Assembly (NCBI GenBank): GCA_965215265.1
Contig: OZ244048.1
Span: 1,536,001 to 1,600,000, forward strand
Source of the DNA: Candidatus Poribacteria bacterium
Lineage (GTDB): Bacteria > Poribacteria > WGA-4E > WGA-3G
Direction: 5' to 3'
Length of the DNA stretch: 64,000 nt
Numbering within the stretch: position 1 is the first letter of the stretch; every line of letters starts with the position of its first letter. Below, one piece after another: positions 1,841 through 54,112 of this stretch. A program made the position numbers and the translations under genes. The notes below the pieces were generated by a model. It searched no databases, was not told the origin of the DNA, and saw only the letters and a list, made by a program, of their open reading frames with translations.

Positions 1841-1977
1841 TAGATAGCTCTTCAGATCGATTAAAGGGAGTTGGGCTCCCACCCAAATCCCAAAACCCCG
1901 GTTGTGAGCCCTTGCAAGCAAGGAGTATACAACGGGGTTCATAACAGGATGAATTCTTTACGGAGATATACAAAAAT

Positions 1978-4119
1978 ATGATTCAAAACATAAACGGCTC
2001 CGAAATTTGTGCACTGACCCTCTGCATGGTGCTTTTCTTAATGCCGCTGTCCACCTCGGCGCAAACTGTTAATATCCCCGACGCGAACCTGCGTGCTGCC
2101 ATTGCAGAGGCACTTGGCAAAGCACCAGCCGCAACGATGACCGCGGATGAGATGGAAACTTTGACGCGGTTAGAGGCACCTGACAAAGGGATTCTTAATT
2201 TGACAGGGCTGGAGACTGCGAGAAATCTGGAAGAGATAAACCTTGACAACAATTTGATAACGGATTTATCGCCACTCACGGAATCCACCAGACTGCGTGG
2301 CATAGAGTTGAGACAGAACACGATCACAGATTTATCACCACTTTCAGAATTAATCAGCTTGACAGGACTAGCACTTGACTCTAATTTCATACGTGACCTC
2401 TCACCGCTGGCCGGATTAATCAATTTGAGATGGTTAGGTATTTCGGATAATATCATCTCCGATTTATCCCCCCTAGAGGGTTTGATAAAACTAGAGTCGA
2501 TATGGATGAGCGAAAACCCGCCCGTAGACCTGTCGCCTCTAGAAGGATTAATGAGTTTGACACGTTTCCACTCTTGGGGTACCCCCATACTAAACCTGGC
2601 ACCGCTTGCGGAATTGCCAAAGCTGAGAAAGATAGATATTTGTGGTGCTGGAATATCAGATCTCTCCGCTTTGGAAGGGGTAACGGGCTTAAAAGAACTG
2701 TATCTCGTCGGTAACAATATCTCAGACATCTCCCCGTTGGCGAGTTTAACACAGTTGACACGGTTGAGTCTTAAACATAACGAGGTATCGGATGTAAGAC
2801 CGCTTGCATCTTTGAGTAACTTGACATGGATAGAGCTTGAGGACAATGCGATATCAGACTTTTCGTCCTTGGATGTGTTTCCTGAGAATGTCACTATCCT
2901 TCGGCGCGACAACCCGGGATTCACACGCGCTGCACCGAAAATAGAGGGGCCGTGGTTGTGGGTTATAGTGTCAACAGAAGGAATGTCTGGTTCAAGAGCA
3001 GCAGCTTCTGGAAGAGATTTTCTGGAACATAGCAGTCAGAGTGCTGTAACAGAATTAGAAATTGCGACTCAGGGGGCGACAGAAGGCGATACTGTGGGGA
3101 ATAAAGTCTGGACAATCGGCAGACTCAGGAGAAAAGGGGGCAATAACATCAATGAATTGGTGAACGCTACAGGCCTGGGAACAGATGATATAAATCATCA
3201 TGTGGCTTATGGTCTGGTTACCTTGGACGCACCACGGGAGCAGAATACAAAGATGTTTGTTGGAAGCAGTGATGCTGTTAAGGTCTGGCTCAACGGAGAG
3301 TTGGTTCACGATAACCCTATAGACCGGGATGCTCATGGGTATCAAGAAAATTTCCCTGTCACGTTAAAACAAGGAACAAATATTTTGTTGGTTGCTGTTT
3401 ATGAGGGCGAAGGCTGGTGGAGCGGCTTTTTTGGCTTTGATGCTAGTGCAGACTATACAGTGCTTCTACCGGATACGCGAGTTAGGAGAGGACAGCCGCG
3501 TGTAGCAGATGTGAACGTGGATGGAGAGGTGAGCATTCTGGATCTGATTCTGGTAGCACGCGACTTGGAAAGAAACAAACCGCTTAACTTGCGAACAGAT
3601 ATAGACGGCGATGGAAAAGTCACTATCTCAGACCTGGACCTTGTGGCACAAAGTATGGACTCAATAACAGGTGCTGCCGCCCCTACCTCACTTGCGATGA
3701 ACGCCTATATTTCTTCAACAATGATACGCACGTGGATAGCACGTGCGCAGCTTGAAAACGACGGCTCGCTTCTCTTTGAGCAAGGCATAGCGAACCTGCG
3801 GCAACTTTTAGGAGACATGCTGCCCGAAAAGACACGGCTTCTGGCGAACTATCCGAATCCATTTAACCCTGAAACCTGGATACCGTATCAACTTGCACAA
3901 GCAACCCGTGTGCAGATCCGTATCTATGCGTCAAGTGGCACGTTAGTGCGCACCTTGGATTTAGGGCATCGGGCTGCAGGACACTATGAGCAGAAAAGCC
4001 GTGCCGCCTATTGGGACGGCCGCAATCAACTCGGTGAAGCTGTAGCAAGTGGTGTCTATTTTTACACATTATCTACAGCCGATTTCACGGGTACCGGCAA
4101 AATGCTCATCAGAAAGTAA
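1978..4119 (+). CDS. Secreted internalin-like LRR protein with dockerin-like domain and C-terminal FlgD-Ig/sorting-type domain
   Basis: Signal peptide, IPDANLRAAI cap, 22-aa LRRs, DVNVDGEVSILDL dockerin, NYPNPFNPETWIPY tail. Confidence 0.85.
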   Translation: MIQNINGSEICALTLCMVLFLMPLSTSAQTVNIPDANLRAAIAEALGKAPAATMTADEMETLTRLEAPDKGILNLTGLETARNLEEINLDNNLITDLSPLTESTRLRGIELRQNTITDLSPLSELISLTGLALDSNFIRDLSPLAGLINLRWLGISDNIISDLSPLEGLIKLESIWMSENPPVDLSPLEGLMSLTRFHSWGTPILNLAPLAELPKLRKIDICGAGISDLSALEGVTGLKELYLVGNNISDISPLASLTQLTRLSLKHNEVSDVRPLASLSNLTWIELEDNAISDFSSLDVFPENVTILRRDNPGFTRAAPKIEGPWLWVIVSTEGMSGSRAAASGRDFLEHSSQSAVTELEIATQGATEGDTVGNKVWTIGRLRRKGGNNINELVNATGLGTDDINHHVAYGLVTLDAPREQNTKMFVGSSDAVKVWLNGELVHDNPIDRDAHGYQENFPVTLKQGTNILLVAVYEGEGWWSGFFGFDASADYTVLLPDTRVRRGQPRVADVNVDGEVSILDLILVARDLERNKPLNLRTDIDGDGKVTISDLDLVAQSMDSITGAAAPTSLAMNAYISSTMIRTWIARAQLENDGSLLFEQGIANLRQLLGDMLPEKTRLLANYPNPFNPETWIPYQLAQATRVQIRIYASSGTLVRTLDLGHRAAGHYEQKSRAAYWDGRNQLGEAVASGVYFYTLSTADFTGTGKMLIRK

Positions 4120-4167
4120 TTTGTATATATCAGCACGTTACCCCCTGATGTGGCAGAATATCGTAGA

Positions 4168-4200
4168 TTGACATCCCGCCCGGAACCGGGCGGGAGTCAA
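4168..4200. repeat. GC-rich palindrome (terminator or REP-like)
   Basis: ttgac-a-tcccgcccgg-aa-ccgggcggga-gtcaa downstream of stop 4119. Confidence 0.55.
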
Positions 4201-4238
4201 CCGAACTTACCAACCCACTGGGAGCCTTTTGATGTTCT

Positions 4239-4435
4239 TTATTCATAACATAGAAAGCCTCGGACGAGATTTATGGAAGGGTTATCATAACATCAATCAC
4301 TGTTGGGCTCCTGTAGAGAAAAAAACGAAAAAAGGAGAGATACGAAAAGATGATTCATAGCATAGATAACCTCAGACGACATTTACACAGGACTTCACAA
4401 AACATAACCCTTTTAGGTACGGAGAGATACGAAAA
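4239..4435 (+). repeat. Two head-to-tail dispersed units (B arm then A arm)
   Basis: gacgagattt...gggctcctgtagagaaaaa followed by a copy of the 1755-1840 unit ending just before ATG 4437. Confidence 0.85.
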
Positions 4436-4436
4436 G

Positions 4437-7400: not shown

Positions 7401-8651
7401 CTCAACGGAGAGTTGGTTCACCAGGCACTCGTTCATCGCGGGGCTGGCGATTATCAAGACTTTTTCCCCGTGACGTTGAAACAGGGGAAAAACGTGTTGT
7501 TGGTCGCGCTTGACAATCGTGGGCATGGCGGCTTTAGCGGCTTTTTCGGGTTTGCCTCAACTGCGAAATATGAAGTATTCCAACCGAGTCTCCGTTTTAT
7601 CTTTTCCACAGAGACGATGCAGGTCCAGGTCGGCGATACGTTTACCGTGCAGCTGAACGCCGAAAATGTCACCGATTTAGCCGGCTGGCAAACTGATATT
7701 GCGTTTGACTCCGCTGTGCTTGAAGCGGTTGAGGTGAGCGAAGGCGATTTTCTGAAAGCGGAGGGCGTAGATACCTTCTTTCAAGCAGGTGAGATTGATA
7801 ACAAAATCGGTAGAATTACCGGTTTAAACGCAGCGCGACTCTCCCACGCCACGTTGAGTAGACAAGGCACGCTGCTCTCGGTGAAATTCACCGCCATTGC
7901 AAGCGGAAAAAGCGGAGTGACACTGCCTAACTTTCAGGCAGGCTCCCGCGGCGGTCAGACAATCCCTTCGATACCGCCGGAGATGACCGTTGTTGTGGAG
8001 GGTTTGGGCACCCGCCCAAATCCTTCCTTACCTGCGTGGGATGTGAATCGAGATGGTGTCACGAATCTCGTGGATTTGATCCTGGTCGGGTCGGCGCTAG
8101 GGCAATTGCCTGTGAGGAATCCGCGAACAGATGTCAATGGGGATGGCGTTGTAGATGTGTTAGATCTCCAACTGGTTGCGGCACATTTTGGGGAAAGGAT
8201 GGTGCCGGCCGCGGCATCAAGCGCTACCTTGCCCGCGGATTTGACTGCGGAACAAGTGATATGGGTACTGAGTTTTTTACGAGATGCGGATGACGGTTCT
8301 GTTGGTTTAGAACGTGCGATTGCGAATCTCGAACAACTTTTAGGGGCGATGCTGCCGGAGAGAACCGCCCTGCTGGCGAACTATCCGAATCCATTTAACC
8401 CTGAAACCTGGATACCGTATCACTTGGCAACGAGTGCCGATGTGCAGATTCGTATCTATGCGTCGAGTGGGGCATTGGTGCGGACTTTGGATTTAGGACA
8501 TCAGGCTGCAGGACACTATGAGCAAAAAAGCCGGGCGGCGTATTGGGATGGAAAAAATGAAGCAGGTGAGGCTGTAGCGAGCGGTGTTTATTTTTATACG
8601 CTGTCTGCAGGCGATTTCACAGGTACCGGCAAAATGCTCATCAGAAAATAG
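4437..8651 (+). CDS. Secreted multidomain protein: c-type cytochrome (two CxxCH), LRR, cohesin, dockerin, C-terminal sorting-type domain
   Basis: CLNCH and CIGCH, LRR array, cohesin-like VGDTFTVQLNAENVTDLAGWQ, DVNRDG/DVNGDG; start moved to 4437 because 4350-4435 is repeat DNA and a signal peptide follows MMKQMR. Confidence 0.85.
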   Translation: MMKQMRAFYLLVVLTVIALGVGTADAQNLARQAYAIFEQNCLNCHGPHGAYTEELVIESAQGLIDSGVVVPSNAIGSEFYRRLLGDTENGLQMPWGKQPLSPEAIGIIGAWILAGAPSWEIQHDVDFISTADMLNTIQRHLETLSPFNRPFARYFTLTHLYNAGELPEALSAYKIALSKLINSLSWGFEIHNPDAIGPAGTIFYIDLRDYEWDTNDAWTSIEQVYPYAIEFDVQTQAPLRDKLMHLREEMACEVPYVYVDWFLATAALPPLYHDILDLPQTDRELERRLEVDVARNLQAAPGVRVWRAGFNDSGVSNHNRVVERHTSRYGAYWKSYDFDGSVGTQNIFTHPLSFRQDGGEVIFNLPNDLQAYYISDESGNRIDVAPTTIVSNPAARDPAVHNGLSCIGCHTEGMKTFEDGVRSVVLQAGNPPFDKEQALRLYVEQGEMDELVADDARRYSEALKETGGEPGGIEPVHRFFEVYQGPVDAAYAAASVGLKTGAFREQIRAKPSLQRLGLLSLVDETGNVKRDAWTSRFQEIVSALNSPDEPVVTQRVVVTPTGTFHIPDANLRSAIAEALGKAPGAVVTAEDIARLTRLDADERGIRDLTGLEAATRLERIECRHNAIADLSPLAGLTRLNNIKLRGNRITDVSPLADLINVDWLGLEENAISDLSPLKGLVKLDGIGISDNPISDVSPLASLISLEGINAWRTHINDFSVLAKLPKLEWIEFGDNRAISALPSLNGLKALKRLEINNCSISDLSGLAELQQLEWLTLVNNLISDVSPLRELKDLKHLNLDANVISDVSPLAKLTRLEVLYLENNVISDTSPLAGLNNLERLDLRNNAILDFSSLEALPDKTFIRMDGNPGFPSGGPKITGPWLWAIVPGIRLDDNTDFLARATGGAATELKVATNGAKEGKAVGDSVWTLHKLAASGGNNINRMTDSLGWGTGAEIYNHIVYGSVVLDSPHTQETTMLVGSDDAVKVWLNGELVHQALVHRGAGDYQDFFPVTLKQGKNVLLVALDNRGHGGFSGFFGFASTAKYEVFQPSLRFIFSTETMQVQVGDTFTVQLNAENVTDLAGWQTDIAFDSAVLEAVEVSEGDFLKAEGVDTFFQAGEIDNKIGRITGLNAARLSHATLSRQGTLLSVKFTAIASGKSGVTLPNFQAGSRGGQTIPSIPPEMTVVVEGLGTRPNPSLPAWDVNRDGVTNLVDLILVGSALGQLPVRNPRTDVNGDGVVDVLDLQLVAAHFGERMVPAAASSATLPADLTAEQVIWVLSFLRDADDGSVGLERAIANLEQLLGAMLPERTALLANYPNPFNPETWIPYHLATSADVQIRIYASSGALVRTLDLGHQAAGHYEQKSRAAYWDGKNEAGEAVASGVYFYTLSAGDFTGTGKMLIRK

Positions 8652-8652
8652 A

Positions 8653-8978
8653 TTTTTCGTCTACAGGAGCCCAATGACGCTCTATGTTTTTTAAAAACTT
8701 GTGCCTGTGGTGGTGCCCACCCGCCCTTTTCCAGTCTCTTCTTTCAGGAGAGAGGAGTTGGGCGGGTGGGCACCAAAAATCTCGTCTGAGCCTCTTTATG
8801 CTATGCCCAAGGAATCTCCGACGAGATTTACACACGAGCTATCAATAGCATAAGCGTTGATGGTACGGAGATATACAAAAAAGCGATGTTTAGATTCAAT
8901 ACATCAGGAGGCTCTGGCGAGATTTATACAGTAATTTACAAAACATAAACCTTTATGGTACGGAGATATACAAAAAAA
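8653..8978. repeat. Cluster of dispersed units: inverted B arm with nested palindrome, then two A arms
   Basis: ttttcgtctacaggagcccaa...aaatctcgtc, then two gagattt...ggtacggagatatacaaaa units; last ends at ATG 8979. Confidence 0.85.
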
Positions 8979-10550
8979 ATGAATGAAAAAAAAAGTGACA
9001 ATCTTAAACTTCTTTACGGAATTATCATCGCTATTGTTGCAGGTGCGCTTGTTGGGGGAGGGTTCCCAGGGGTAGCGGTGCATACGACGATACTCGGTGA
9101 AATTTTCTTAAACCTACTAAAAATGATAGTGATTCCATTGGTGATCTTCTCCATGATTACCGGTATCACGAATTTAGGCGACATTCGCCATATCGGTTCT
9201 ATCGGTGGTAGGACCGTGCTGTACTATATGGCAACCACGGGGCTCTCCGTGCTGGTGGGTATCCTTCTCGTCAACATTCTGCTGCCCGGCAAAGGCCTCT
9301 CGAAAGGTGAAGAGCATCCGGATTTGAATTATACGCTGAGCGGCGACATGTTGCAGAACGTCACATTAGCGGCTGAATTCAGTAGAAGTTATAACGACAA
9401 GTATGTCATCACCCTCACTGACCAGGGTGTCCGCGGTGAGTTAGGATCCATGTCGGGTACCACTGTCACCGTAAAATCATGGACACTACTGGATCCTGCT
9501 GCCAGATATGTGAGTACAGACAGTGGTGAACGTTTATTGTTCCTCGACGGGAAACCGGCCGAGATCCAACTTAACGCTAGTGGGCAAGGCGTTGACATCG
9601 GGCTTCCTATTGCTGGCAAAATACAAGACAAAAAAGAGCGGGATATGCTCAGCACCCTCAAGGAGGTGTTCCTCGGCAATCTGGAGACTGGAAAAGTGGG
9701 GATGATACCCGAAAATGTATTCAAGGCAATGGCTAATATGGATATTCTCCCCTTAATCTTTTTCTCAATACTTATCGGGGCCGCGCTTTCAGTACTCGGG
9801 GAGCCGGGGAAGCCTGTGATAGCGATGATTTCGGGGCTCAATGATGCCGTGATGCAGCTCGTTCACTGGATTATGTTTGTTGCCCCGGTCGGTATTTTCG
9901 GTCTCATTGCCGGCCGCATCGGAGAGGCAGATGGGTTTGTCGGTTTCTGGCCCGAACTCGTCGCCGTTGGAAAGTATAGTTTTACTGTACTACTAGGCCT
10001 CTCAATTCATGGAGCAATTGTCTTACCCGTAATACTCTTGCTGGTTGGTCGGAGAAATCCGTTAGATTATGTCAAGGGGATGGCAACGGCGCTCTTGAAT
10101 GCATTTTCAACCGCTTCTTCCAGTGCTACCTTGCCCCTCACGATGGAGGGAGTAGAGGAGGAGAACGGTATCTCAAATCGTACTTCGAGTTTTGTGCTGC
10201 CCTTGGGCGCCACAATTAACATGGACGGTACCGCATTATATGAAGCCATTGCAGTCATGTTCATTGCGCAGGTGTACGCGATAACGATGGAACCAGCGCA
10301 GCAGCTTATTGTTGTGCTGACTGCCACGCTTGCGGCGATTGGTGCAGCAGGAATCCCGGAGGCAGGCCTCGTCACAATGGTGATTGTGCTTCGTGCTGTC
10401 GATTTGCCGATTGAGGGAATTACCTTGATTCTCTCCGTGGATTGGTTGTTAGATCGGTTCCGGACGACTGTGAATGTTTGGGGCGATAGCATCGGGGCCG
10501 GTGTCATAGAGACATACGAACTGAAGGATTCTGTGGCAGAGAGTACTTAG
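8979..10550 (+). CDS. Dicarboxylate/amino acid:cation symporter (DAACS family)
   Basis: FSTASSSATLP and PLGATINMDGTALYE motifs; long soluble insertion after TM3. Confidence 0.92.
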   Translation: MNEKKSDNLKLLYGIIIAIVAGALVGGGFPGVAVHTTILGEIFLNLLKMIVIPLVIFSMITGITNLGDIRHIGSIGGRTVLYYMATTGLSVLVGILLVNILLPGKGLSKGEEHPDLNYTLSGDMLQNVTLAAEFSRSYNDKYVITLTDQGVRGELGSMSGTTVTVKSWTLLDPAARYVSTDSGERLLFLDGKPAEIQLNASGQGVDIGLPIAGKIQDKKERDMLSTLKEVFLGNLETGKVGMIPENVFKAMANMDILPLIFFSILIGAALSVLGEPGKPVIAMISGLNDAVMQLVHWIMFVAPVGIFGLIAGRIGEADGFVGFWPELVAVGKYSFTVLLGLSIHGAIVLPVILLLVGRRNPLDYVKGMATALLNAFSTASSSATLPLTMEGVEEENGISNRTSSFVLPLGATINMDGTALYEAIAVMFIAQVYAITMEPAQQLIVVLTATLAAIGAAGIPEAGLVTMVIVLRAVDLPIEGITLILSVDWLLDRFRTTVNVWGDSIGAGVIETYELKDSVAEST

Positions 10551-10678
10551 ATTCAAAACATAGAAAGGCTCAGGCGAGATTTATGCGAGGTTGCATATCA
10601 CATCTGTTGTGTTGTGCTGCAGTAGACGAAAGACGGTACGGAGATATACGAAAAGATGGTACCAAGATATACAAAAAA
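10547..10678 (+). repeat. B-arm unit plus duplicated A-arm ends
   Basis: ggcgagattt...gctgcagtagacgaaa then ggtacggagatatacgaaaa and ggtaccaagatatacaaaaaa. Confidence 0.75.
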
Positions 10679-12803: not shown

Positions 12804-12872
12804 GTTCTTTGTCTGTCCTGAAGGACAGACACCCATTGGGAATACCGAACTTGCCAACCCGCTGGAAGCCGC

Positions 12873-12964
12873 TTTATGCTACGCTATGCCTAAGAAATCT
12901 CCGACGAGATTTACACACGAGCCCTCAAAAGCATAGACGTTGACGGTACGGAGATATACGAAAA
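12873..12964 (+). repeat. Dispersed repeat unit, A arm
   Basis: ccgacgagatttacacacgag...ggtacggagatatacgaaaa ending 4 nt before der ATG. Confidence 0.9.
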
Positions 12965-12968
12965 CGTT

Positions 12969-14345: not shown

Positions 14346-14362
14346 CGCGAAAGGAGGGAGTC

Positions 14363-15337: not shown

Positions 15338-15478
15338 AGCCCTCCGATTCGTTTTGCTTTTTTGAGCAATTGAAGGTTTCGTAAACTTACCTATCCTGCC
15401 ACTCGTCTGAGCGGTTTAGGGTTTTATTTCAGAGGGTTTTGCTTTAGATAATGATATTGGGTTTTGTCTGCCCGATTT

Positions 15479-15760
15479 TTAGAATATCGAAGACATCCCC
15501 ATTGACGCGAAAACTCCCACCCATCCAACTCCTGCGATTGTAGCGTTTACCAGCTCCACACTCTTAGGAACAATAATAGACTTTCGCTTGAAACGTCCGA
15601 ACCCCTGCCGCATTAAACCATTGTTCCGCTCAATGTGATGTGTTTCAGTTTTCGTCTGAATCAATACATCTGCTCGGATAAGACTCTTATACGGTTGCCA
15701 ATCATCGGTGTAATACACCTTCACTTGCCAGGGCACCAAGCGTTTGAGAAGTTGTGATCT
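15479..15760 (-). mobile_element. IS1-family transposase (InsB-like) remnant
   Basis: YYTDDWQPY...THHIERNN...RFKRKS resembles the IS1 InsB C-terminus; N-terminus absent. Confidence 0.7.
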
Positions 15761-15850: not shown

Positions 15851-15937
15851 TTAACTAATTATGAAATAAGTGAGTGTGATACCCCAAGGATTAAAGAGCC
15901 CAGAGTCGTATCATTATTTTACGAAAAACTCTCTTAT

Positions 15938-16017
15938 TTCAAAACCTCGAAGGGCTCCGACGAGATTTACACACGAGTACTCACGACATCAGCGATGACG
16001 GGACTGAAATATACGAA
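15938..16017 (+). repeat. Dispersed repeat unit, A-arm variant
   Basis: ggctccgacgagatttacacacgag...gggactgaaatatacgaa directly abutting ATG 16018. Confidence 0.85.
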
Positions 16018-19407: not shown

Positions 19408-19421
19408 ACCTTCGGAGCCGT

Positions 19422-19615
19422 TTATGTTTAGACTTCAAAAGACTATACCTAAGCAATCTTCAACGAGATTTTTTAGTATATTGCAGCACAACAAAGGCTG
19501 CTGCTATGCTAAGTCCTTTACAAATCTCGCTCTTTTTCGTATATCTCCGTACCATCAACGCTTAGGTATTGATTAACAATACATCAGGCGTTGTGGGGCT
19601 CCAGTATACAAAAAA
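19422..19615. repeat. Scrambled cluster of four repeat-unit fragments in both orientations
   Basis: caacgagattt (+), inverted B arm, inverted A end tttttcgtatatctccgtacc, B end ggggctccagtatacaaaaaa (+). Confidence 0.8.
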
Positions 19616-19628
19616 CAGGGAAACACCG

Positions 19629-36653: not shown

Positions 36654-36656
36654 ATC

Positions 36657-36892
36657 GCCACTCCTCTCTCCTGCGAAGAGAGACAAAGAAAGGAATTGGG
36701 TGGGCACCACCCTCAACTTCGTAATCTTATCTCTCCTTTAGGAGAGATAAAGAATACCGAACTTGCCAATCTATAGATCGTCGGAGATGACTTAGGTTTA
36801 GTCTTTAAAAATCTAAACATCAGAACCCTCTGGCGAGATTTGTAAAGGATTTAACATAGCAGCCGCCTTTATTAGGCTCCTGTATACAAAAA
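36657..36892. repeat. Palindrome-family copy followed by partial inverted A arm and full B arm
   Basis: 36657-36709 resembles the reverse complement of 8710-8765; ggcgagattt...ggctcctgtatacaaaaa. Confidence 0.8.
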
Positions 36893-36968
36893 GTTGTATG
36901 CCTGCTATAAGTCCTGTTTACCTGAGTCTATTAAGTCATTATAATAAAAAAATGGAGGTTAATCAATT

Positions 36969-38657: not shown

Positions 38658-38668
38658 GAAGCCTGACA

Positions 38669-38707
38669 TTATATGAGTGGGTACTTTTTGAGTACCTGCT
38701 CATATAA
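38669..38707 (+). terminator. Hairpin after stop, probable terminator
   Basis: ttatatgagtgggtact...agtacctgctcatataa followed by a T run. Confidence 0.55.
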
Positions 38708-38709
38708 CG

Positions 38710-38909
38710 TTTTTCGTATATTTCAGCCCAATAAAGGTCTTTTGTATACAGGAGCCCAATAAAGGCGGCTGCTATGTTAAATCCTTTACAAATCTCGTCT
38801 GAGCCTTCTGAAGCTTTGACTTCAAAAGACTATACCGAAGGTGTCTCCGACGAGATGTACATCGGATTTAACAAGACATAACCCTTGATGGGGCTGAAAT
38901 ATACAAAAA
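38710..38909. repeat. Inverted B/A pair of the dispersed repeat
   Basis: ttttgtatacaggagccc...aaatctcgtc / gacgagatgt...ggggctgaaatatacaaaaa; A arm matches 45189-45275 in reverse. Confidence 0.88.
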
Positions 38910-38920
38910 GATGTTTTCCT

Positions 38921-40813
38921 ATGGGTACCACTTATCTAAAGCAAAGCGGCTTCCTGGAGGCCCTCACGGAGCGCATTCTTGTGTGCGATGGTGCCATCGG
39001 CACGGAACTCCGAAAACGCGTCCCGTCCTATTTACAGTGCATTGATGCGTGCAATATTCATAGCACGTACGCGCCTATCGTCAAGGAAATTCACTGCACT
39101 TATCGGGACGCGGGGGCTGATGTCATCCAGACTAATACCTATCAAGCGAATAGAGAAGCTTTAGCGGTTCATGGCTTAGCAGAACAGGTAGAACTGATAA
39201 ACCGGGCAGGTGTGCAGCTTGCGCAAGCTGTGGCTGGAGATAGATGCTATGTGGCAGGTTCTGTCGGGCAAATTCCGTTTCAAACCTTAGACGCTGCGGG
39301 TACCGACCGGAGCGTCTCCACGAAAACGGTTCGCCGGCTCTTCAAAGAGCAGATGGATGCTTTGGTTCATGAAGGGGTGCAGCTGCTAGTTTTGGAAACG
39401 TTCGTTTCTGTGAGGCAAGCCGAGATTGCGACAAAGCAGGCACTCACGTACGGTGTTCCTGTAATCGTTCTCATGAGTGGGATTTCAGGTGGCACGATGG
39501 GCAGCGGGCTGGATGTCCGTGTTTTCGCCCGGGAGTTGGAGCAGTTAGGGGCGCACGCGGTTGGGATTAACTGTAGGGGGCCGCATGACTTAGTTGAAGC
39601 GATGGAACTGCTGGCACCAGTCATTAAAGTCCCGCTCGTTGTGCAACCTAACGCTGGAAATCCGAGGATTGAACAAGGAGAAATTGCGGTTTCATACACG
39701 GTGACTGCAGAGGTTTTCAGCGATTATGTAGAAAAATTAGTTGAACTTGGTGCGAACATGATAGGCGGCTGTTGTGGTACAACACCGGATTACACAGCAA
39801 AAATCCGCTCTATTGTTGGAGAACAGAAGCCGGCGGAACGGCAGACGCGAATCTTCGTTCTACCGCGCCGTATCGCAGCCAAACCATCAAAGCGTGTTCC
39901 AAACGAAAACCCCGTCCAACAAGTATTTGAAACACGCGAACGTATTGTGAGTGTAGAGACGCGCGCAAATACGTTCCCGCAATTGCGTGCGTTATTGAAA
40001 GAAGCGAAAACCCTCGCCCAACTCGGTGTAGATTTATTTGATGTGACTGACAATTCTGGGGCTGTGGTTAACATCGGAGCAGTTGGCACAGCGTATCGCC
40101 TTCAGCAATCCACTCAGATTCCGACACTTATCCATTGGACAACGCGTTCGCGAAACCTGATTAGTATGCAATCGCATCTTTTGGAAGCAGAGACGCTCGG
40201 TATCCGCGGTATTGTCGCGCTATCCGGAGACCATCCGAAGGCAGGTCCCTATGAAGCAGCGAGCCTTGTCCCTGATGTGCGGGGAGCGGTGCAACTGATG
40301 AAACTCATCGCGCGGTTAAACCGGGGGGAGCTCGCAGACGGTTCGTCGATTGGCGAACCATGTTCGTTTTACTATGGCGGTGGGTTTACAATCGCCGAGA
40401 ATCTTAAGCCCCATGTCAAACACCTCACAAGTAAAGTAGAACAAGGTGCTAAGTTCGCTTATACGCAACCGGTCTGGACGTTTGAAGATGTTGTGCATAC
40501 ACAGAAAGCGACCGAACACCTCGGCATCAAAATCCTTTACGGTATCCTTCCCTTAACGAGTTTCCGTAGTGCGTCCTACCTACGGGACAACTTGGGCCTC
40601 TATATTCCACAGTTCATCGTTGAAAAATTCCACGACCTTGGCGATACCGCGGGGCATGAACTTGGAATGAAGTTAACCTTGGAATTGGTCAAAGAACTCC
40701 GGAATCAGGAGCAGATACCTATAGATGGTATCTACCTGATTCCGCCAGCTCGCATGAATTGGAAAAACAGGTGCCGCGCGATCTCGGAAATCGTCAAAAC
40801 GTACCGTTTTTGA
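38921..40813 (+). CDS. Bifunctional homocysteine S-methyltransferase / methylenetetrahydrofolate reductase (YitJ-like)
   Basis: DGAIGTEL, GINC, PNAG, IGGCCGTTP; MTHFR half with RNL, SGD, AYTQP. Confidence 0.88.
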   Translation: MGTTYLKQSGFLEALTERILVCDGAIGTELRKRVPSYLQCIDACNIHSTYAPIVKEIHCTYRDAGADVIQTNTYQANREALAVHGLAEQVELINRAGVQLAQAVAGDRCYVAGSVGQIPFQTLDAAGTDRSVSTKTVRRLFKEQMDALVHEGVQLLVLETFVSVRQAEIATKQALTYGVPVIVLMSGISGGTMGSGLDVRVFARELEQLGAHAVGINCRGPHDLVEAMELLAPVIKVPLVVQPNAGNPRIEQGEIAVSYTVTAEVFSDYVEKLVELGANMIGGCCGTTPDYTAKIRSIVGEQKPAERQTRIFVLPRRIAAKPSKRVPNENPVQQVFETRERIVSVETRANTFPQLRALLKEAKTLAQLGVDLFDVTDNSGAVVNIGAVGTAYRLQQSTQIPTLIHWTTRSRNLISMQSHLLEAETLGIRGIVALSGDHPKAGPYEAASLVPDVRGAVQLMKLIARLNRGELADGSSIGEPCSFYYGGGFTIAENLKPHVKHLTSKVEQGAKFAYTQPVWTFEDVVHTQKATEHLGIKILYGILPLTSFRSASYLRDNLGLYIPQFIVEKFHDLGDTAGHELGMKLTLELVKELRNQEQIPIDGIYLIPPARMNWKNRCRAISEIVKTYRF

Positions 40814-40851
40814 ATCACACATCACATCAAAGGATTTGGGCCCTAATCCAA

Positions 40852-40914
40852 AGACGAGATTTGTAAAAGAATTTATCAAAACACCAGGCTTTTATGTGCT
40901 CCTGTAGACGAAAA
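40852..40914 (+). repeat. Dispersed repeat unit, B arm
   Basis: gacgagatttgtaa...gtgctcctgtagacgaaaaa just upstream of ATG 40925. Confidence 0.8.
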
Positions 40915-40924
40915 AGGAACCTTG

Positions 40925-42844: not shown

Positions 42845-42930
42845 GGTTCTGTGCCTGCAGCATGCGGATGACTCGGATAAGTCCGATAGGCGGACAGTGC
42901 CATCCGTCCCCTATATCTCCTATAAAAACA

Positions 42931-43543
42931 ATTTTTTGTATATCTCCGTACCATCAACGCTTATATCGTGGGTACTCGTGTGTAAATCTCGCCAGAGCCA
43001 TTCTAGATTATGATTCCTCAATCACCTTCAGACGCTTTTATGCTTCATCACGTTTTTTTGTATATCTCCGTACCATCAACGCTTATGTCGTGGGTACTCG
43101 TGTGTAAATCTCGCCAGAGCCATTCTAGGTTATGATTCCCCAATCACCTTCAGACGCTTTTATGCTTCATCACGTTTTTTTGTATATCTCCGTACCATCA
43201 ACGCTTATGTCGTGGGTACTCGTGTGTAAATCTCGCCAGAGCCATTCTAGGTTATGATTCCTCAATCACCTTCAGACGCTTTTATGCTTCATCACGTTTT
43301 TTTGTATATCTCCGTACCATCAACGCTTATGTCGTGGGTACTCGTGTGTAAATCTCGCCAGAGCCATTCTAGGTTATGATTCCTCAATCACCTTCAGACG
43401 CTTTTATGCTTCATCACGTTTTTTTGTATATCTCCGTACCATCAACGCTTATGTCGTGGGTACTCGTGTGTAAATCTCGCCAGAGCCATTCTAGATTATG
43501 ATTCCTCAATCACCTTCAGACGCTTTTATGCTTCATCACGTTT
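42931..43543 (-). repeat. Tandem array, 5 x 122 bp, each unit containing an A arm
   Basis: gtatatctcc recurs at 42938, 43060, 43182, 43304, 43426; units differ at only about 3 positions. Confidence 0.97.
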
Positions 43544-43557
43544 CCCTCCTAAAAAAG

Positions 43558-45130
43558 TTAAGCATGCCCTTCTTCACGGATAAGGCCGCCAACGAACACT
43601 CCGGAAAACAGCAGGATTGCAAGGGCGTAAGGTGCCGCTTCAGCGAACATCGCTTCTGTTGTGTAACTCCATACGTTGAGCGCCAACGTCTCATAACCGG
43701 CAGGCGATAAGAGAAATGTGAGCGGTAACTCCTTCATCGTCGCCAGGAAAACGAGAACGGCAGCAGCACGCATGCCTCGGATAAGAATAGGGATAACAGC
43801 CCGGAAAAACGCCTGTACTGGTGAATCTCCGAGCGAACGTGCGGCTTCCTCTAAGTGGGGTGAAACTTGGTACAGTGCACTGCGTACGGGTCCGATGGCT
43901 TCCGCCAAGAAGTGTAGCGCACATGCGTAGATGAGGACGAACACCGTTTTATAAATAAAAGAGACAGTATTTAAAACAAAAAAGATCAGCGAAAGTGCGA
44001 ACGCAAGCGGGGGCACGGCATAAATGATATAAGCAACCCGCGCTAACCCGTTTGAGAAACGTGACGGATAACGTACATCGACGTAAGCAAACGGCACCGC
44101 TAAAACGGCACAGATAACTGCTGTAGGGATTGCGATTGACAGGGAGCCGATAAAACCGTCTAACATCGCTAAGAAGGGGTTTCCGGAACTGACGGTACCT
44201 CTGAATAGCCACAGGATAACTGCACCCGCTGGCACAACGACCGTTGCAAAGATAAGCAAGGCGAGATAAAAATATGCAGGAACACGCAAGCCTTTGAGCG
44301 AAACCAATGATACTGGACGGGACAATCCACGTCCCACTCGGTGCAAGGCAACCCGCCTGAGCAACTTTGCCTCAATGTAAAGCAGACAGCTTGTAAACGC
44401 GAGCAGCATCAACGCAAGCCATGCCGCCGAAACATGCTCAAAAGAAAGCATATATTCTGCATAGAGGGCGTAACTAAAGGTTTCATATCGCATTAACGAC
44501 ACAACCCCAAAGTCGCCTAAGACATGTAAACTGATGAGCAGCCCACTGGCGTAGAACGCAGGCTTAAGTTGTGGGAGAATAACGTGGTAGAAAACCTCAC
44601 GGGAACTATAGCCGAGGCTTCGGGCGGATTCCTCAAGGGGCGCATCGAGCCCTAACAGCGCTGCACGTAGATTTAAAAAAAGATAGGGAAATGTGTAAGC
44701 GCCGAGCGCGAGGAGCGCTCCCCAATACCCACTTAGGCGAGGAATGCTCCTGCCGAAAAACGCGGCAACAATGCCGTTGTTACCGCCAAGTGCCAATAGC
44801 GCATACGCCATAACGTAACCGGGAATCGCAAGCGGCAAAACGCATAGCACCGTAAAAAAACGTTTGTTCCTCAGGTTTGTTCGGCACGTCAACCATGCCG
44901 CCGGCATTGCGAAAAGAAAATCGAGAATGAGTACGCCGATGCCCAGCAGCAACGTGTTAAGCAGAAGCTTGAAGTTCCGCCCCCGAAATACAATCTCAGA
45001 AAGCATCTTACCCTCAACTGAAAATGCTTTCCAGAATAGGTAGCCTAATGGAATCAGGCCCCCGAGTGCTACGGCGATTGCGATGTAAAAGAAATACGCA
45101 TGTCCTCCGTCAGGAATAATGCGGTGTTTG
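43558..45130 (-). CDS. Fe3+ ABC transporter permease (FbpB/SfuB-like); native start displaced by repeat cluster
   Basis: Two EAA loops (LEESARSLG, LEEAARSLG); frame extends upstream of ATG 45006 through an extra TM helix to the repeat at 45131. Confidence 0.85.
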
Positions 45131-45362
45131 TTTTGTATATCTCCGTACCATCATCACTTATGTCGCGATGTCCTATGTGTAAATCTCGTTTTTTTGTATA
45201 TTTCAGCCCCATCAAGGGTTATGTCTTGTTAAATCCGATGTACATCTCGTCGGAGACACCTTCGGTATAGTCTTTAAAATCATAACATCAAACGGCTCAG
45301 ACGAGATTTTCACAGGTTTTTATATAGCAGCCGCCTTGTTACGGGCTCCTGTATACAAAAAA
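45131..45362. repeat. A arm plus complete inverted A/B pair
   Basis: 45131-45188 A arm (minus); 45189-45362 tttttgtata...aaatc center...tatacaaaaa. Confidence 0.9.
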
Positions 45363-45498
45363 CCTTTATTGGTTATGATACAAAACATCAATCTGCCTCT
45401 TCAATCACCCTCCTCCCTCAACGCCCAGATTTCAAGGTGCGCGGCTTGCAACTCAGTCTATCAACCGGATTCCGGAACATTGATTTGGCATACCGTGC

Positions 45499-46491: not shown

Positions 46492-46595
46492 AGTTATCTC
46501 CTTTAGCAACTAAAAAGATTGTTATGAACATTTGCCAGATGAAAGTAGGCATAACACCAAAGATTTTGACACATCAACGAGAAGAAAGTTCAGAA

Positions 46596-47642: not shown

Positions 47643-47704
47643 TTTCAAAATAAATACGTCGACTCCATAAGAACCTATATTCGGTTAGATTTACTATGTA
47701 TTGT

Positions 47705-47733
47705 ATTATACCACAAAAATACCCCAATGTCAA
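47705..47733 (-). promoter_or_regulatory. Consensus sigma70 promoter for the oxidase/iron uptake genes
   Basis: TTGACA-17 nt-TATAAT on minus strand; a divergent TTGACA at 47740. Confidence 0.8.
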
Positions 47734-47949
47734 AAAAAATTGACAAATGTCATTAATTCATGATAGCATGAAAAAAATGATGACTCAGGACAATTCCATG
47801 AAAAATTCAATCATACCTTGCTGTCTATTCTTGATGCTGCCGTTTTTAGACAGAATCAGTATGAACAGATATGCAGCCGATGTTACCACTAAACCATTGG
47901 CTAGCAGCACTCAATTTAGGGAAGTTGAGGAAGCCGCGAAGGCTTTTTC

Positions 47950-48876: not shown

Positions 48877-49070
48877 CAGGATAAGAGGGGCCTCGTGCAG
48901 ACAGCAGGCTCTTGAATAGCACGCAGCAATCCGTCTAAAAAGGTACAGCGGTGGTGTCTGTCTGTTGCAGTTGAAAAAACGTGCGTTGATCGGATATCGC
49001 TTAGAGGTGATTTATCCAAAATCACAATTCGTATCTCTTGGTACCATCATCGCGTTTGTTTTGATGGCTC

Positions 49071-49700
49071 GTGTGTTGGCAGGATAGGTATTCTTTAATG
49101 TCAAATACAGTTAATCTAAAAATATTTCAAAAAACGTTCGATTCTTATTTTTGGAAATGGTACGGAGTTGTGAGCATCCTTTATGTTTCTATTTTCTGCA
49201 CCTACACTGCCGTGGCATTCGGTATCCTCACAAGTGAGTCTGAGTTACCTCCGTTTCTCTACCGACTCATTGCCCCGCTTGAATATTCAGAGTGGATGGG
49301 TGGCATTCCAATTGGCGGAAAGCAAATCGGTTTTCTAACATTTGGTGCTATGTCAGTTGGGGCTGTGTCTATCGGTGCCTTTTCTGTTGGGATTGTTTCT
49401 GTTGGTGCTTTTTCAATAGGAGTTTTTGCGTTTGGTGGTAACTCTTTGGGTATCATCGCCATCGGAGGAGGGACAAGTTTTGGGTGCTTTGCCGGAGCGG
49501 CAAAGACAAGCGGGAGATTTGACATCGGTAAGGCGTTAGGTGTGTTCGCGGTTGCTCCTGAAACTTATGGTGTCTATACGTTATCTTACAATGGCGGCGG
49601 CACCTACAGTTTATCACCATCTCGTGCGGACGCGGAAGCGGTTGCATTTTTTTGCCGGTGGTTACCAAAATTCAAGAAAACTTTTCACAGTCCGGCTTAA
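49071..49700 (+). CDS. Membrane protein with Gly-rich pentapeptide-like repeats
   Basis: GAMSV-GAVSI-GAFSV-GIVSV-GAFSI; start uncertain (ATG 49098 likely); degenerate A-arm fragment at 49028-49076. Confidence 0.6.
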   Translation: MCWQDRYSLMSNTVNLKIFQKTFDSYFWKWYGVVSILYVSIFCTYTAVAFGILTSESELPPFLYRLIAPLEYSEWMGGIPIGGKQIGFLTFGAMSVGAVSIGAFSVGIVSVGAFSIGVFAFGGNSLGIIAIGGGTSFGCFAGAAKTSGRFDIGKALGVFAVAPETYGVYTLSYNGGGTYSLSPSRADAEAVAFFCRWLPKFKKTFHSPA

Positions 49701-50053
49701 CGCTCGCCAATTGTCGACGGCAACTTCTCTCGAAATCAGTCGCTTATGGTTGTTGGAAAACGTTCCGTCCATTCTGAGTTTGCCATGTCTTATCTGATGT
49801 TTTTGACATGCGCCCAGGTACTCGCCAATTTCCCAGTCGGTGAAACGGCTAAGGCTTTCTCAAGTCCGTTATTCATGACATGTTTGATGTTATCGTCGGT
49901 GAGTGGTGCGTTAAAAACGCCGACTTCATCAATGAACCCGCGGAAAGACCAGCCAGGATTTTTCCAAGAGGCAAGCCAAATCTCACCATCGGGTTTATCG
50001 TCAGCTTTCCCGACCTTTTTATCTGCAACGGGTTCGCCGTCCACGTAGAGTTT

Positions 50054-50170
50054 TTCGTATATCTCCGTACCATCAACGTCTATGTAATGATAACTCGTGT
50101 GTAAATCTCGTCGGAGCCTCACTAGGTTATGATTCCTCAATAACTTTACGTGCTAACTCTTCAATCTCGA
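50054..50170 (-). mobile_element. 117-bp intragenic insertion containing an A arm
   Basis: Separates YDGDII from KLYVDG. Confidence 0.8.
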
Positions 50171-50263
50171 AATGATATCGCCATCATAGGTGAGGGCGAC
50201 AAAACTCCACTCGTCTTGTTTCCATGTACCACCTCGGATATGCGTTGCGCCCTGATCTGCGTT

Positions 50264-50350
50264 TTTTCGTATATCTCCGTACCATCAACGCTTATGTCAT
50301 GAGTACTCGTGTGTAAATCTCGTCGGAGTTTTTCGATGCTATGAATCGTT
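50264..50350 (-). mobile_element. 87-bp intragenic A-arm insertion with AACG direct repeat
   Basis: cgtt at 50260-50263 and 50347-50350; separates SIAVN from ADQGATH. Confidence 0.85.
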
Positions 50351-50916
50351 AACAGCAATACTTCCGTAAAAATCGGCAGCTCCGATTTGTATGGTGGGGT
50401 TATGCCAATCGCGTTCAATTAGCCGTGTGTGCGGATTGGGGGGTGCAGTAGTCGGTTTGACCCAGAGGAGATACGTGAAACCGTCAAGGTAATCGTCGGT
50501 AGTTTTGCTTGCGAGGATGGCGACGTGGCCCGTGCCATCAAACTCCAACCCTTTCCCGAGTTTTCCATCTGTCCATTTCGCTTTTACTACGAGTCCATCA
50601 TTGCCGTTTCCGGAACGATCTTCGACTTTGTCGCCTTTTCCTTCGTCAAGCAGCCAGATGCCAATAATCGATTCCGGATCTATTTTGGCAAAGGCATCGT
50701 GCTGGTAAATCTGAATTGGGAATATCGCTACCAGAGTTATGAGACAAAATGCGATACATGTTATAGTTCTCATTTTAGAAGTTTCCCCTTTGCTTAGATC
50801 TGATTTTACTACATTTAAAAGATTATAGTATTTCCCGTTTATTGTCAATGAACTTACGAGATATTCATTAGCCCCATTTTTTTGCGTGAGTAATATATAG
50901 ATGCGATGCGTTGCTG

Positions 50917-51110
50917 TCAGAGAGAGCGTGTCTCGGGAATTTTGTCTCCGACTACCCAAACAACAATTCCTCCCTCTTTTGTTACGCGATAGAGATGCAC
51001 TGCGATACTTTCGAAGTCAAATGAGTATCCTTTGTAGTCACGAAACTTGTCGTAGGGAGGAGATGTCGCGGTGATATCTATAATTTGTTCATCAGAGAGG
51101 TGCCCAGTTT
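50917..51110 (-). pseudogene. N4-cytosine/N6-adenine DNA methyltransferase fragment
   Basis: IDITATSPPY...LYRVTKEGGIVVWVVGD only. Confidence 0.7.
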
Positions 51111-51175
51111 CCGTTAGTGGCAGAACTGATTGAAATCTTGGCGGCAAATATTAAGAGATAAGCCACACATGTGCC

Positions 51176-53878
51176 TCAAAACTCATATATAATTCCGAAA
51201 GAGAAAAAGATGGGGAATTGGGGTATCTCCAGAGATTCATTGGCTTCTCTCCAGTCAAGTTCTTCCATGTCACTCTCATACTCTAACGTTTCGATGCCCT
51301 CTACCAATTGATCAGCAATGCTTAACCTTATTTTATTTCTGCTGTTGTAGACATTCAAGATTTCGATAAACGTCGTTATAGGGATTCCCCACCGCGTTGT
51401 TTTGCGACTGAAACGGAGATCCAAGCGGTTATAAGCCGGGAACTCTGTTGGCAAAATTGCACCTGTAACATCAGAGATGAGTGGGTGCATCCCCACCGTT
51501 ACAGGGTCCTGAACCATAATGAGGGTATTTAAGGGAACTGCGGTGGTACCACTAGAATATTGCCACCTCGCACCGATCTCCGTTTTAGTCGTTGGGTTGT
51601 AGTTGGCAACAATGCTAACAACGTGTGTGTTATCAAAGAGAAAAGGTTTGTAGCCATCTTCCGGTGTCTCACGTCGTTCGGCGTGGGTATAGGCATAAGA
51701 TACCCATCCGAAGAATTTTTCGCTCACGCGGTGCCGCAAGAACATCTCTGCTCCGCTCACAAACCCTTTTCCTTGATTGAGGTACGGTGTTGTAATCACG
51801 GTGTCCGATTCATCAAAAAGTGCCCCAAGATCTACGGATCGCGTGGCTAATTTTTGCATGTGTTTGTAGTAGAGTGAGAATTTGAGTTCTGTCTGCGGTG
51901 AGAGTTGATGTTCTAACTCCATGATATAATGCTGGGTTAGGCTTGATTTTAGCTTCCGGTTCCCCTCGGCCTTTAGGACCTGATATGCTAAGGGGCTCTG
52001 TTCATAGCTGCCGTAGGCGAACCGGAGGGTGGAAGTCGTTGGCAATGTGACGCTAAGGCTTCCACGCGGCTGAATTGAGAGTTCATCTGTCAAATTGAGA
52101 TAATCAAACCGCACACCGATTGCCATTGACAGAAATGAGAACAGATCATAGCGTCCTTGTAGGTATCCCTCGGCACGCCGAAACGCGTAATTAAATTCGT
52201 CGTGTTTTTGGCCCCATGACGGTTCCTCATCATCATCAAAATCTACGGTTGCTAGGAAAGTGGTGCGTGCGAGACTCTTGGCTGGACTAAATGCAAGGAG
52301 AAATCCTGGCTCAAATTGAAGTGTCGGTGTTAATTGGTAAAACACGTCTTCGCGAAGCGTATACATAGGGGTGTTAACCTTGACATTGTAGATGAATTCT
52401 TCGTTCTCAGCGCTGTCGTCTTGACTTGAGGCATCCTTGAAATTGACATTGAGAAAATTGTGAGAACGTGTGAGGGAGAGATAGGACGTGAGTTTATCAG
52501 TGAAATTAGAGCGGAGATGGATGCCTTCTGCTTCAAACCCGTTTTTGAAATATGCAGAAAAATCACCGGTGTCTTCGATATCTTCTGACCTAAAATTAGA
52601 GAAGTCAAAAAAATCTGTGGCTCCCAAACCGTTGAGCGTGAGGTGATGCTTTTTCGTGAGTTGATAAGCAAATTTGAGTTGATAGTCAGACCAGTTTGGA
52701 AATGTCCAATCAACAAAACGCCCTAAAATGAGATCGAGTGTGGTGAATCGCCCTGCAATGGATGCGTACCCCTTGTTGCCAATTTTGGCTCCAACGAAAC
52801 CAGAGGGTGAAAAAATGTTCAGGTCGAGCGTGCCTGTTAGCCTCTTTTTCAACTCTTCACGCGAACGGATGTCAATAACCGATTGTGAATCCAATCCAAA
52901 TTCGGCACCGTAGCCGCCAGCATAGATGCGAATGTCTTCAATACTATTTGAGTTAATCGTTGAGATAATGCCGCCAAAATGGAACGGATAGCCGACCGGG
53001 GTTCTATCTAAATACATGAGCGTTTCCCCCGGCGCACTTCCACGGATATAGAGGATTCCGAAGATATCGTTGGGGATACCGATGCTCGGCAGCGTCGTGA
53101 GCCCTTTGAGTGCATCACGCCCTATGCCGGGAATCCGTATCAGTTCGCTACCTTGAATCTGCTTTCGGCTAATCGTCGGCCGGAGGCGTTGGCCCTCCAC
53201 CACAACTGTTTCTAGCTTTGCCACTGTCCCGAGATATACTTTCACCTGTGTAGTCTCGCCTGCTGTTACCTCTATTGTCGTAGCCATCGGTGTCTTATAC
53301 GCTGCATGTGTGATGGACAGGGTGTAGGTGTCAGGCGCGATGTCTGTAAACTGAAAGTTTCCGGAAGCATCTGTTTTTCTGGACACGTTGATTTCGACAA
53401 GGAGGCTCTCTGCCTCGGCAAGAGGCTTCCCTGTTGTTTGGTCATAGACATAACCGTCGATATCCCCGTTATTGGTGGCTTTCACAAACGTAACCGCTGT
53501 ACCGGGGTAAAATCTTCCGCGGAGCGTCTCGCCCGCACGAATCTCAATCAGAATCTCTGTGGGTGTACTATAGATGGGATGGGATATGGAGAGTGTATAT
53601 GTTCCGGTAGGAATTTCGGTAAACCGAAATGTTCCGTCTTCATCTGTTTTTTGGGACTCCTCAATCTCAACGAGGTGCACCTCAGCTTCAACTAACGGTG
53701 TAGCGGGGTCGTGCTGGAGGACTGTGCCTTCTATATCACCTGTGTGCGGAAAAACCCGCTGCCAGATGCTTTTTTTCGTTTTTGAGGTCTTGTCTTTTTT
53801 AGTATCGTCCGTTTCGGCAAAAACAGAGAACGTTACCATGAGCACTACAAACAGAACTAGATATGAACAAAATTTCAT
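51176..53878 (-). CDS. TonB-dependent receptor with two carboxypeptidase-regulatory-like domains
   Basis: Signal peptide, duplicated GDIxG.V repeats, plug (LYIRG, YAGGYGAEFG), barrel ending in F. Confidence 0.88.
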   Translation of the reverse strand: MKFCSYLVLFVVLMVTFSVFAETDDTKKDKTSKTKKSIWQRVFPHTGDIEGTVLQHDPATPLVEAEVHLVEIEESQKTDEDGTFRFTEIPTGTYTLSISHPIYSTPTEILIEIRAGETLRGRFYPGTAVTFVKATNNGDIDGYVYDQTTGKPLAEAESLLVEINVSRKTDASGNFQFTDIAPDTYTLSITHAAYKTPMATTIEVTAGETTQVKVYLGTVAKLETVVVEGQRLRPTISRKQIQGSELIRIPGIGRDALKGLTTLPSIGIPNDIFGILYIRGSAPGETLMYLDRTPVGYPFHFGGIISTINSNSIEDIRIYAGGYGAEFGLDSQSVIDIRSREELKKRLTGTLDLNIFSPSGFVGAKIGNKGYASIAGRFTTLDLILGRFVDWTFPNWSDYQLKFAYQLTKKHHLTLNGLGATDFFDFSNFRSEDIEDTGDFSAYFKNGFEAEGIHLRSNFTDKLTSYLSLTRSHNFLNVNFKDASSQDDSAENEEFIYNVKVNTPMYTLREDVFYQLTPTLQFEPGFLLAFSPAKSLARTTFLATVDFDDDEEPSWGQKHDEFNYAFRRAEGYLQGRYDLFSFLSMAIGVRFDYLNLTDELSIQPRGSLSVTLPTTSTLRFAYGSYEQSPLAYQVLKAEGNRKLKSSLTQHYIMELEHQLSPQTELKFSLYYKHMQKLATRSVDLGALFDESDTVITTPYLNQGKGFVSGAEMFLRHRVSEKFFGWVSYAYTHAERRETPEDGYKPFLFDNTHVVSIVANYNPTTKTEIGARWQYSSGTTAVPLNTLIMVQDPVTVGMHPLISDVTGAILPTEFPAYNRLDLRFSRKTTRWGIPITTFIEILNVYNSRNKIRLSIADQLVEGIETLEYESDMEELDWREANESLEIPQFPIFFSFGIIYEF

Positions 53879-53879
53879 G

Positions 53880-54112
53880 TTTTTGTATATCTCCGTACCA
53901 TCAACGTCTATGTAATGATAGCTCGTGTGTAAATCTCGTCGGAGCCGTTCGACGTTTTGACTCTAAATATCACCTTCCTCCTCCTCCGTATCTTCACCGC
54001 TTATCGCTTTTTTGTATATCTCCGTACCATCAACGTCTATGTAATGATAGCTCGTGTGTAAATCTCGTCGGAGCCGTTCGATGTTTTGACTCTAAATATC
54101 ACCTTCCTCCTC
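53880..54112 (-). repeat. Two tandem A-arm units, 129-bp period
   Basis: gtatatctcc at 53885 and 54014; proximal copy ends 1 nt before ATG 53878. Confidence 0.92.

Follow-up and report, generated by a model that had tools for sequence, protein, structure and literature searches.

A repeat arm of about 90 bp and near-constant length is scattered through the 64,000 nucleotides of a Candidatus Poribacteria bacterium contig that were analyzed here (the window), and we consider it probable, if well short of certain, that this is a selfish, non-autonomous, MITE-like repeat whose A-rich end can be tolerated at translation starts, so that copies found there persist. Judging from sequence, the arm end probably serves as a weak substitute ribosome-binding site (RBS) at the genes whose start codons it adjoins. 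A portable RBS is plausible but weak, and a parasite that the host tolerates is a likelier identity for the repeat than a regulatory system.

Anatomy and distribution of the repeat

The window holds 41 arm ends, 23 of them with GGAG, and a profile built from 28 arms yielded 38 matches at E<0.01, covering about 5% of its length. A-type arms terminate in GGAG, ATATAC and a run of A, and B and variant arms share the same last bases without GGAG. The window contains the end motif GGAGAKATACRAAAA 21 times, and 100 shuffles contain it 0 times. The copies have diverged (mean column identity of 78%), and their alignments show islands of conserved motif along an arm of fixed length. Arms stand singly, in tandem (with periods of 87, 95, 122 and 129 bp) or back to back as imperfect palindromes of about 180 bp, and the two-arm copies are 77–83% complementary across 126–135 nt, forming terminal inverted repeats round a non-coding core. 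A second, REP-like inverted-repeat family, seen at 4150–4220, 12790–12860, 15370–15400, 36660–36770 and 59245–59300, repeatedly splits arms at the same small central hairpin, and an IS1 transposase remnant (15479–15739) lies between two arm pieces.

The two intact arm pairs that were folded gave strong structures (z of -2.83 and -5.90). Single arms showed no strong fold in eight leaders (z from -1.4 to +1.9), and a ninth leader, with the arm end alone, gave a z of -2.2. The consensus fold of the single arm comprised 3 pairs with no covariation, an Rfam search of the window returned 0 matches at the gathering score, and a relaxed search returned 13 weak matches, none of which fell on an arm core. 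A structured-RNA or riboswitch reading was rejected on these grounds. A leader-peptide reading, prompted by one frame that stays open in 13 of 14 arms when a column with a one-base insertion is removed, was also rejected, as pN/pS was 0.79 against a null of 0.96 +/- 0.24 and thus not under the shuffle null. A sigma-70 promoter scan of 53800–56830 found no match within the arms, and an extended -10-like motif near some repeat centres was seen by eye only. Three of the seven terminator-like matches in the scanned region come from arms read inward.

Relatives were sampled from GTDB around der only. The Der protein encoded at 12969, which scores above the TIGR03594 cut-off, retrieved 59 loci when used as query, 48 of which form a group at 59–80% identity with titles that are almost all Candidatus Poribacteria. 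The closest relative (L035) keeps synteny across ten genes at 64–88% identity. The arm profile gave no match at E<0.01 on the 48 Poribacteria der loci, and the end motif, with one mismatch allowed, is absent from all 59 retrieved loci; a weak arm-end-like stretch at 304–357 of L035, shortly 5' of a gene (E of 0.018 in a single-locus search), is a possible decayed copy. A BLAST search of plasmids and phages with a two-arm copy as query found no match. Among the relatives sampled at der, the repeat is restricted to the lineage of one Poribacteria species, and literature searches over open-licence papers and preprints turned up no description of it.

Proximity to start codons and orientation

A sequence-only reading of this DNA had placed arm ends immediately before ten start codons, all pointing into the gene. 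The ten positions are correct: the GGAG motif lies 5' of the ATGs at 1978, 4437, 8979, 10656, 12969 (Der) and, on the minus strand, 53878, with 12–15 nt from GGAG to ATG, and variant or B ends precede 16018, 19629, 38921 and 40925. They are, however, a selection, as only 6 of the 23 GGAG ends lie at most 7 nt from a start, the other 17 belonging to upstream or tandem copies, facing stop codons, lying 30–319 nt off a start or sitting inside broken genes. An A-type arm with a GGAG end at 1756..1841 (plus strand) is 139 nt from the next start, an A arm at 59168..59330 (minus strand), which is split by the second repeat and has a captured gene end before it, is 247 nt away, and the intact two-arm copy at 55141..55317 is 319 nt away. 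The two-arm copy at 4118..4328 has its left end at the stop codon of an LRR gene and its left arm split by the second repeat, and the one at 8650..8886 has its left B arm at a stop codon, split by a hairpin insert. A partial left arm with a B arm (36778..36897) lies 78 nt 5' of a gene with its own Shine-Dalgarno (SD) sequence, a two-arm copy with an extra A arm (45128..45366) precedes a gene that retains a native GGAGG, and a degenerate arm at 49025..49075 (minus strand) is antisense to the genes on both sides. The intact copy 5' of ATG 38921 (38706..38915) combines a B and a variant A arm and folds into a long hairpin.

Proximity was assessed with one outermost end per spacer, the null being uniform insertion in the residual spacer, and all p-values given here are indicative only, because the copies are not independent. 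Start proximity in the window exceeds chance, with 7 of 14 start-facing clusters at most 7 nt from the start where 2.72 were expected (p=0.0007). Two starts are element-made, as ATG 10656 lies within a tandem duplicate of an arm end and ATG 1978 within a truncated next arm; without these, the count is 5 of 12 (p=0.004). At a limit of 17 nt, it rises to 10 of 14 against 4.06 expected (p=6e-5). Stop-facing ends gave 2 of 9 at both limits, the difference from start-facing ends being significant at 17 nt (Fisher p=0.03) but not at 7 nt (p=0.19). Placement of the target sequence (TT^AA, see below) was tried as the source of this proximity and rejected: in the 246 spacers of the relatives, only 15 of 212 TTAA sites (7.1%) lie at most 7 nt from a start, and since TTAA is not concentrated near starts there, target choice gives no account of the enrichment.

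Orientation shows a sense bias. Excluding the array near 43 kb, 26 ends are sense and 10 antisense, the GGAG ends are sense in 15 of 18 cases (15 against 3), and so are 9 of 10 one-direction clusters. That all ends point into a gene is partly built in, because two-arm copies face both ways, and the ends at 4120 and 8656 adjoin stop codons. The six GGAG ends that adjoin a start all lack an intact partner arm, and in no case among the five intact two-arm copies does a GGAG end fall at a start, a pattern to be expected if initiation is blocked by the long hairpin. The proposal that the element targets or is retained at starts fares better in its second half; targeting is unsupported, as copies also lie inside genes (twice in a LamG gene, twice in a Gfo/Idh/MocA, or GFO, gene) and as GGAG is not needed for an end to adjoin a start, the helicase gene being the example.

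The arm end as a possible ribosome-binding site

The arm end is the sole SD-like sequence before six genes. On the plus strand, an arm end followed by a truncated next arm (1955..2008) supplies both ATG 1978 and about 11 codons of an LRR/dockerin gene. An extra end and an A arm at 4329..4436 adjoin ATG 4437 and are in frame from ATG 4350 (P0278), a tandem A arm at 8884..8978 adjoins the SDF transporter ATG 8979, and a B arm with two end duplicates (10543..10678) provides, in the second duplicate, ATG 10656 and 8 codons of an AI-2E transporter. The A arm 5' of der (12879..12968, ATG 12969) has a truncated partner arm. On the minus strand, two tandem A arms with a 129-bp period occupy 53876..54103, the last adjoining ATG 53878.

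As an SD, the arm GGAG offers a 4-nt match at an aligned spacing of 10–13, and the spacer between GGAG and ATG measures 12–13 nt in five of the six cases. Orthologue leaders have an SD match in 134 of 159 cases, with a median spacing of 6 and 11 of the 134 at a spacing of at least 10; in the relatives' spacers, 18 of 246 SDs are spaced by at least 10. The optimal spacing is usually 5–9 nt, and A-rich spacers favour translation in E. coli, as reported in PMC7264876. The noted match to the T7 gene 10 leader extends over 10 nt and nothing further, as T7 pairs a 6-nt SD with an 8-nt spacer, against 4 nt and 12–15 nt in the arm; a relationship to that leader was rejected as coincidence.

The claim that native leaders have been replaced, even that of der, stands for two genes. 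The SDF gene has lost the native SD that 34 of 35 orthologues possess, leaving only that of the arm, and the helicase gene has lost the SD present in 12 of 12 orthologues to a variant arm without GGAG, which lies right against its ATG at 16018 (15929..16017, plus strand). The methyltransferase gene, in contrast, retains a 13-nt host leader behind a mosaic of partial arms (19408..19617), and the DUF6785 gene retains its native SD, the B arm at 40811..40916 (plus strand) having inserted at TT^AA within the upstream stop codon, as seen by comparison with L035. For der, replacement is not established, since in L036, with the element absent, both the GGAG leader and the N-terminus are similar, and the der SD and leader may, by this comparison, be partly ancestral. 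The der leaders of relatives vary widely. Tandem duplications of that leader were seen in several relatives (L010, L015, L032), so leader turnover is common in the group. Tandem TAACTGA-type heptamers stand directly before the AI-2E starts in L006, L009, L012, L015, L016, L019 and others; a TAACTGA heptamer before starts is reported for Beggiatoaceae in PMC4679880.

A serious, though somewhat unlikely, alternative is that the GGAG is incidental and that initiation proceeds without SD pairing, via the A-rich unstructured spacer or by translational coupling. The short match at a spacing that is rare among orthologues and relatives would fit such a reading, as would the helicase start adjoined by an end without GGAG and the AI-2E orthologues, only 4 of 27 of which have any SD match (the window's AI-2E ATG being element-derived). 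The link between GGAG and closeness, at 6 of 9 against 1 of 5, is likewise not significant (p=0.13, again indicative). However, GGAG is carried by 6 of the 7 ends lying at most 7 nt from a start, the spacer is clustered at 12–13 nt, and some der leaders of relatives have an SD match at 11–12 (5 of 44).

Mobility, target site and apparently captured sequence

The LamG gene at 49790..50773 (minus strand) is broken by two single-arm insertions, both also on the minus strand. One (50048..50170) carries a 37-nt captured gene end and shows no duplication when compared with P0003, a conspecific 259-aa LamG protein from another assembly that is 98% identical to that of the window; the other (50260..50346) has 4 bases common to both sides. 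As this intact conspecific allele is without both inserts, the comparison indicates that the repeat is recently mobile. An intact two-arm copy (55894..56064) splits the GFO gene, without duplication, precisely where the homologue P0123 is continuous, and another (56608..56783) lies where the gene misses its N-terminal part of about 60 codons. In the region of this gene with the missing N-terminal codons (55555–58926), a HindVP-type restriction-modification pair was also seen, with arm copies on either side.

All four insertion sites that could be reconstructed are TT^AA, TTAA occurring at 0.3% of positions, and the bases shared by both flanks number 0, 0–1, 0 and 4, which gives no fixed-length target-site duplication; of the empty sites, three were inferred from protein sequence and one from another species (L035). 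The absence of a fixed duplication would suggest a tyrosine-type enzyme. No mobilising enzyme or cognate IS, no reverse transcriptase and no RAYT gene was found among the 44 window ORFs scanned, and a crude motif screen of the 48 loci found no RAYT gene either.

The 37 nt carried into the LamG gene resemble a host gene end that is also found before the arm at 59317. Arms accompanied by paralogous host gene ends (KVIEES-stop) with synonymous differences were observed at 50130–50168, 59317–59427 and 42995–43520, and the synonymous differences suggest that arms have captured upstream sequence. On the minus strand, 42928..43540 consists of five tandem 122-bp units, each an A arm joined to about 27 nt of the beginning of a gene that has been lost. 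In this array (42928–43560), the five copies duplicate the SD-ATG start of the gene that followed an ABC permease, and nothing more of that gene is left. The start of an ABC permease (45006–45101) looks frameshifted just 3' of its SD-led ATG.

It would also be conceivable, though improbable in our judgment, that RNA is the intermediate by which the arms move, in a target-primed reverse transcription where the A-rich 3' end primes at TT^AA and the variable 5' end can carry upstream transcript. The target geometry of LINE-1 may resemble this pattern of sites. The fixed A-rich end, the TT left flank at 4 of 4 sites, the variable overlap (0, 0–1, 4 and about 27 nt), the captured gene ends at 50130–50168 and 59317–59427 and a sense bias even inside a broken gene would all accord with such a route, but the GFO gene holds whole two-arm copies with both ends precise, as expected of a DNA element, and the window ORFs include no reverse transcriptase. 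In its boldest form, which we hold to be decidedly improbable, the repeat would be a bacterial short interspersed element that primes with its A-tail at TT^AA, takes the ends of upstream genes along and, by virtue of a terminal RBS evolved on the way, can colonise the leaders of essential genes, rewriting initiation across one symbiont genome, perhaps with thousands of ends if the density of the window is typical.

The sequence is metagenome-derived, with mosaic junctions and with the intact LamG allele in another assembly, which would speak for misassembly at repeats. We regard it as close to negligible, as the copies differ from one another, the window contig spans 4.83 Mb, and P0001, whose cluster lies on two contigs, has the same two GFO insertions with one residue different.

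Arms in proteins outside the window

A profile of the arm-encoded peptide matched 14 of 7999 candidates scored, namely two window proteins, one marginal and apparently unrelated protein and 11 others, which we infer to belong to the same species. In 7 of these 11, a methionine that fits the native start lies 0–5 codons after the arm end (an SDR, an LRR paralogue, a DUF368-type transporter, MtaB, an NtrC-like regulator, the beta part of a fused glycyl-tRNA synthetase and, with a variant end, one marginal match), so the start-adjoining geometry recurs beyond the window, in a sample that holds in-frame, stop-free copies only and is therefore biased to short distances. Of the other four, the N-terminus is replaced in two, a third contains an in-frame insert in its interior, and the last is probably a spurious ORF. 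In P0283, an in-frame arm-derived peptide occupies residues ~300–345, in the alpha-beta linker of the fused glycyl-tRNA synthetase. As such fusions are also found in other bacteria (Atlas), the element cannot be claimed as the origin of this one. Of 27 candidates in a search with the 59-aa two-arm peptide, the conspecific GFO protein was the single match.

Comparison with known repeats

The closest precedent, by analogy, is Neisseria REP2, which, with Borrelia IR-A/IR-B, shares with the window repeat the character of a dispersed intergenic repeat of 100–200 bp with an RBS (putative in the window repeat), and sometimes an ATG, directly before unrelated genes (PMC3184786). REP2 is described there with a promoter, two stem-loops, no terminal inverted repeats, 23–26 copies and demonstrated co-regulation. 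The window repeat differs in having two-arm inverted forms, no single-arm structure and about 40 ends per 64 kb, and in breaking genes; an RBS and ATG before an ORF in the manner of REP2 is found at 6 of 23 GGAG ends, with a weak SD at long spacing, and the built-in promoter was not matched by arms within 53800–56830. A genome-wide regulatory layer, as had been suggested, is unlikely, given no conserved single-arm structure, no promoter in the arms scanned, unrelated downstream functions and absence from the 48 relatives. These same points, together with the 17 of 23 GGAG ends away from starts, the gene-breaking insertions and the strain-level polymorphism, make it quite doubtful that translation starts are where the element is directed or has been domesticated, with co-regulation of the genes as for REP2, although the start enrichment, which recurs outside the window, the REP2 precedent (PMC3184786), and the fixed arm length and motif islands, which could bind a protein, speak for it.

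Bacterial MITEs such as Correia, ERIC, RUP and Nezha are likewise non-coding, shorter than 200 bp and equipped with inverted ends, and form long hairpins, filled and empty sites and ORF fusions (PMC3184786); filled and empty sites are present here too (P0003, L035). The window repeat has, however, no fixed target-site duplication, half-elements that move alone and no cognate IS among the 44 window ORFs. With REP/REPIN-RAYT and TIRYT systems, it shares inverted doublets, tandem arrays, extragenic abundance and lineage restriction (PMC3733652, PMC3116915), but it has no GTAG- or CGTC-tagged conserved hairpin unit, its arms are 90 bp rather than the 20–40 given for REP in these accounts, and RAYT was unseen among the 44 window ORFs. 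The Start Associated Sequences of Cluster K mycobacteriophages are also asymmetric SD-bearing repeats just before starts, yet are described as 13 bp long, placed 3–7 nt before starts, linked to a start in nearly all cases, and conserved from phage to phage (PMC3203893), while the window repeat is mobile and start-linked in 6 of 23 cases. In the window repeat, in-frame copies occur in P0279, P0272 and the P0283 linker, a likeness by description to Rickettsia palindromic elements, which insert in frame into proteins; unlike those, most of its copies are intergenic. In-frame repeat fusions are reviewed in PMC3184786.

Proposed explanation and implications

The reading that we favor, that of a selfish MITE-like repeat, would run as follows. 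Arms of about 90 bp, single, tandem or back to back, insert at TT^AA without fixed duplication, in genes and in spacers, as at the four reconstructed sites. They would be moved by an enzyme acting in trans, for which a tyrosine-type transposase or recombinase is our guess because of the absence of a fixed duplication. An insertion, or a deletion on the element side, that reaches a start codon would normally silence the gene and be purged, but the arm end, with GGAG and an unstructured A-rich spacer, would permit enough initiation for start-reaching copies to accumulate. Copies that block expression, such as antisense arms, which are terminator-like when read inward, and intact two-arm hairpins that bury the end, would be lost or broken; the terminator-like character of arms read inward would explain the sense bias, although selection does not clearly account for the two insertions that lie in sense within the broken LamG gene. 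The portable RBS would be a by-product that cuts the cost of insertion, rather than part of a regulatory network.

These results point to a mobilising enzyme that would target TT^AA and leave no duplication of fixed length. They also indicate that gene callers are misled, as arm-derived peptides appear in 11 database proteins beyond the window. If the ends drive translation, a mobile repeat has been caught replacing RBSs from one strain or sister species to the next, in some cases close to housekeeping genes, and this, if true, would offer a route for start-associated repeats of the REP2 type to arise without an initial adaptive role.
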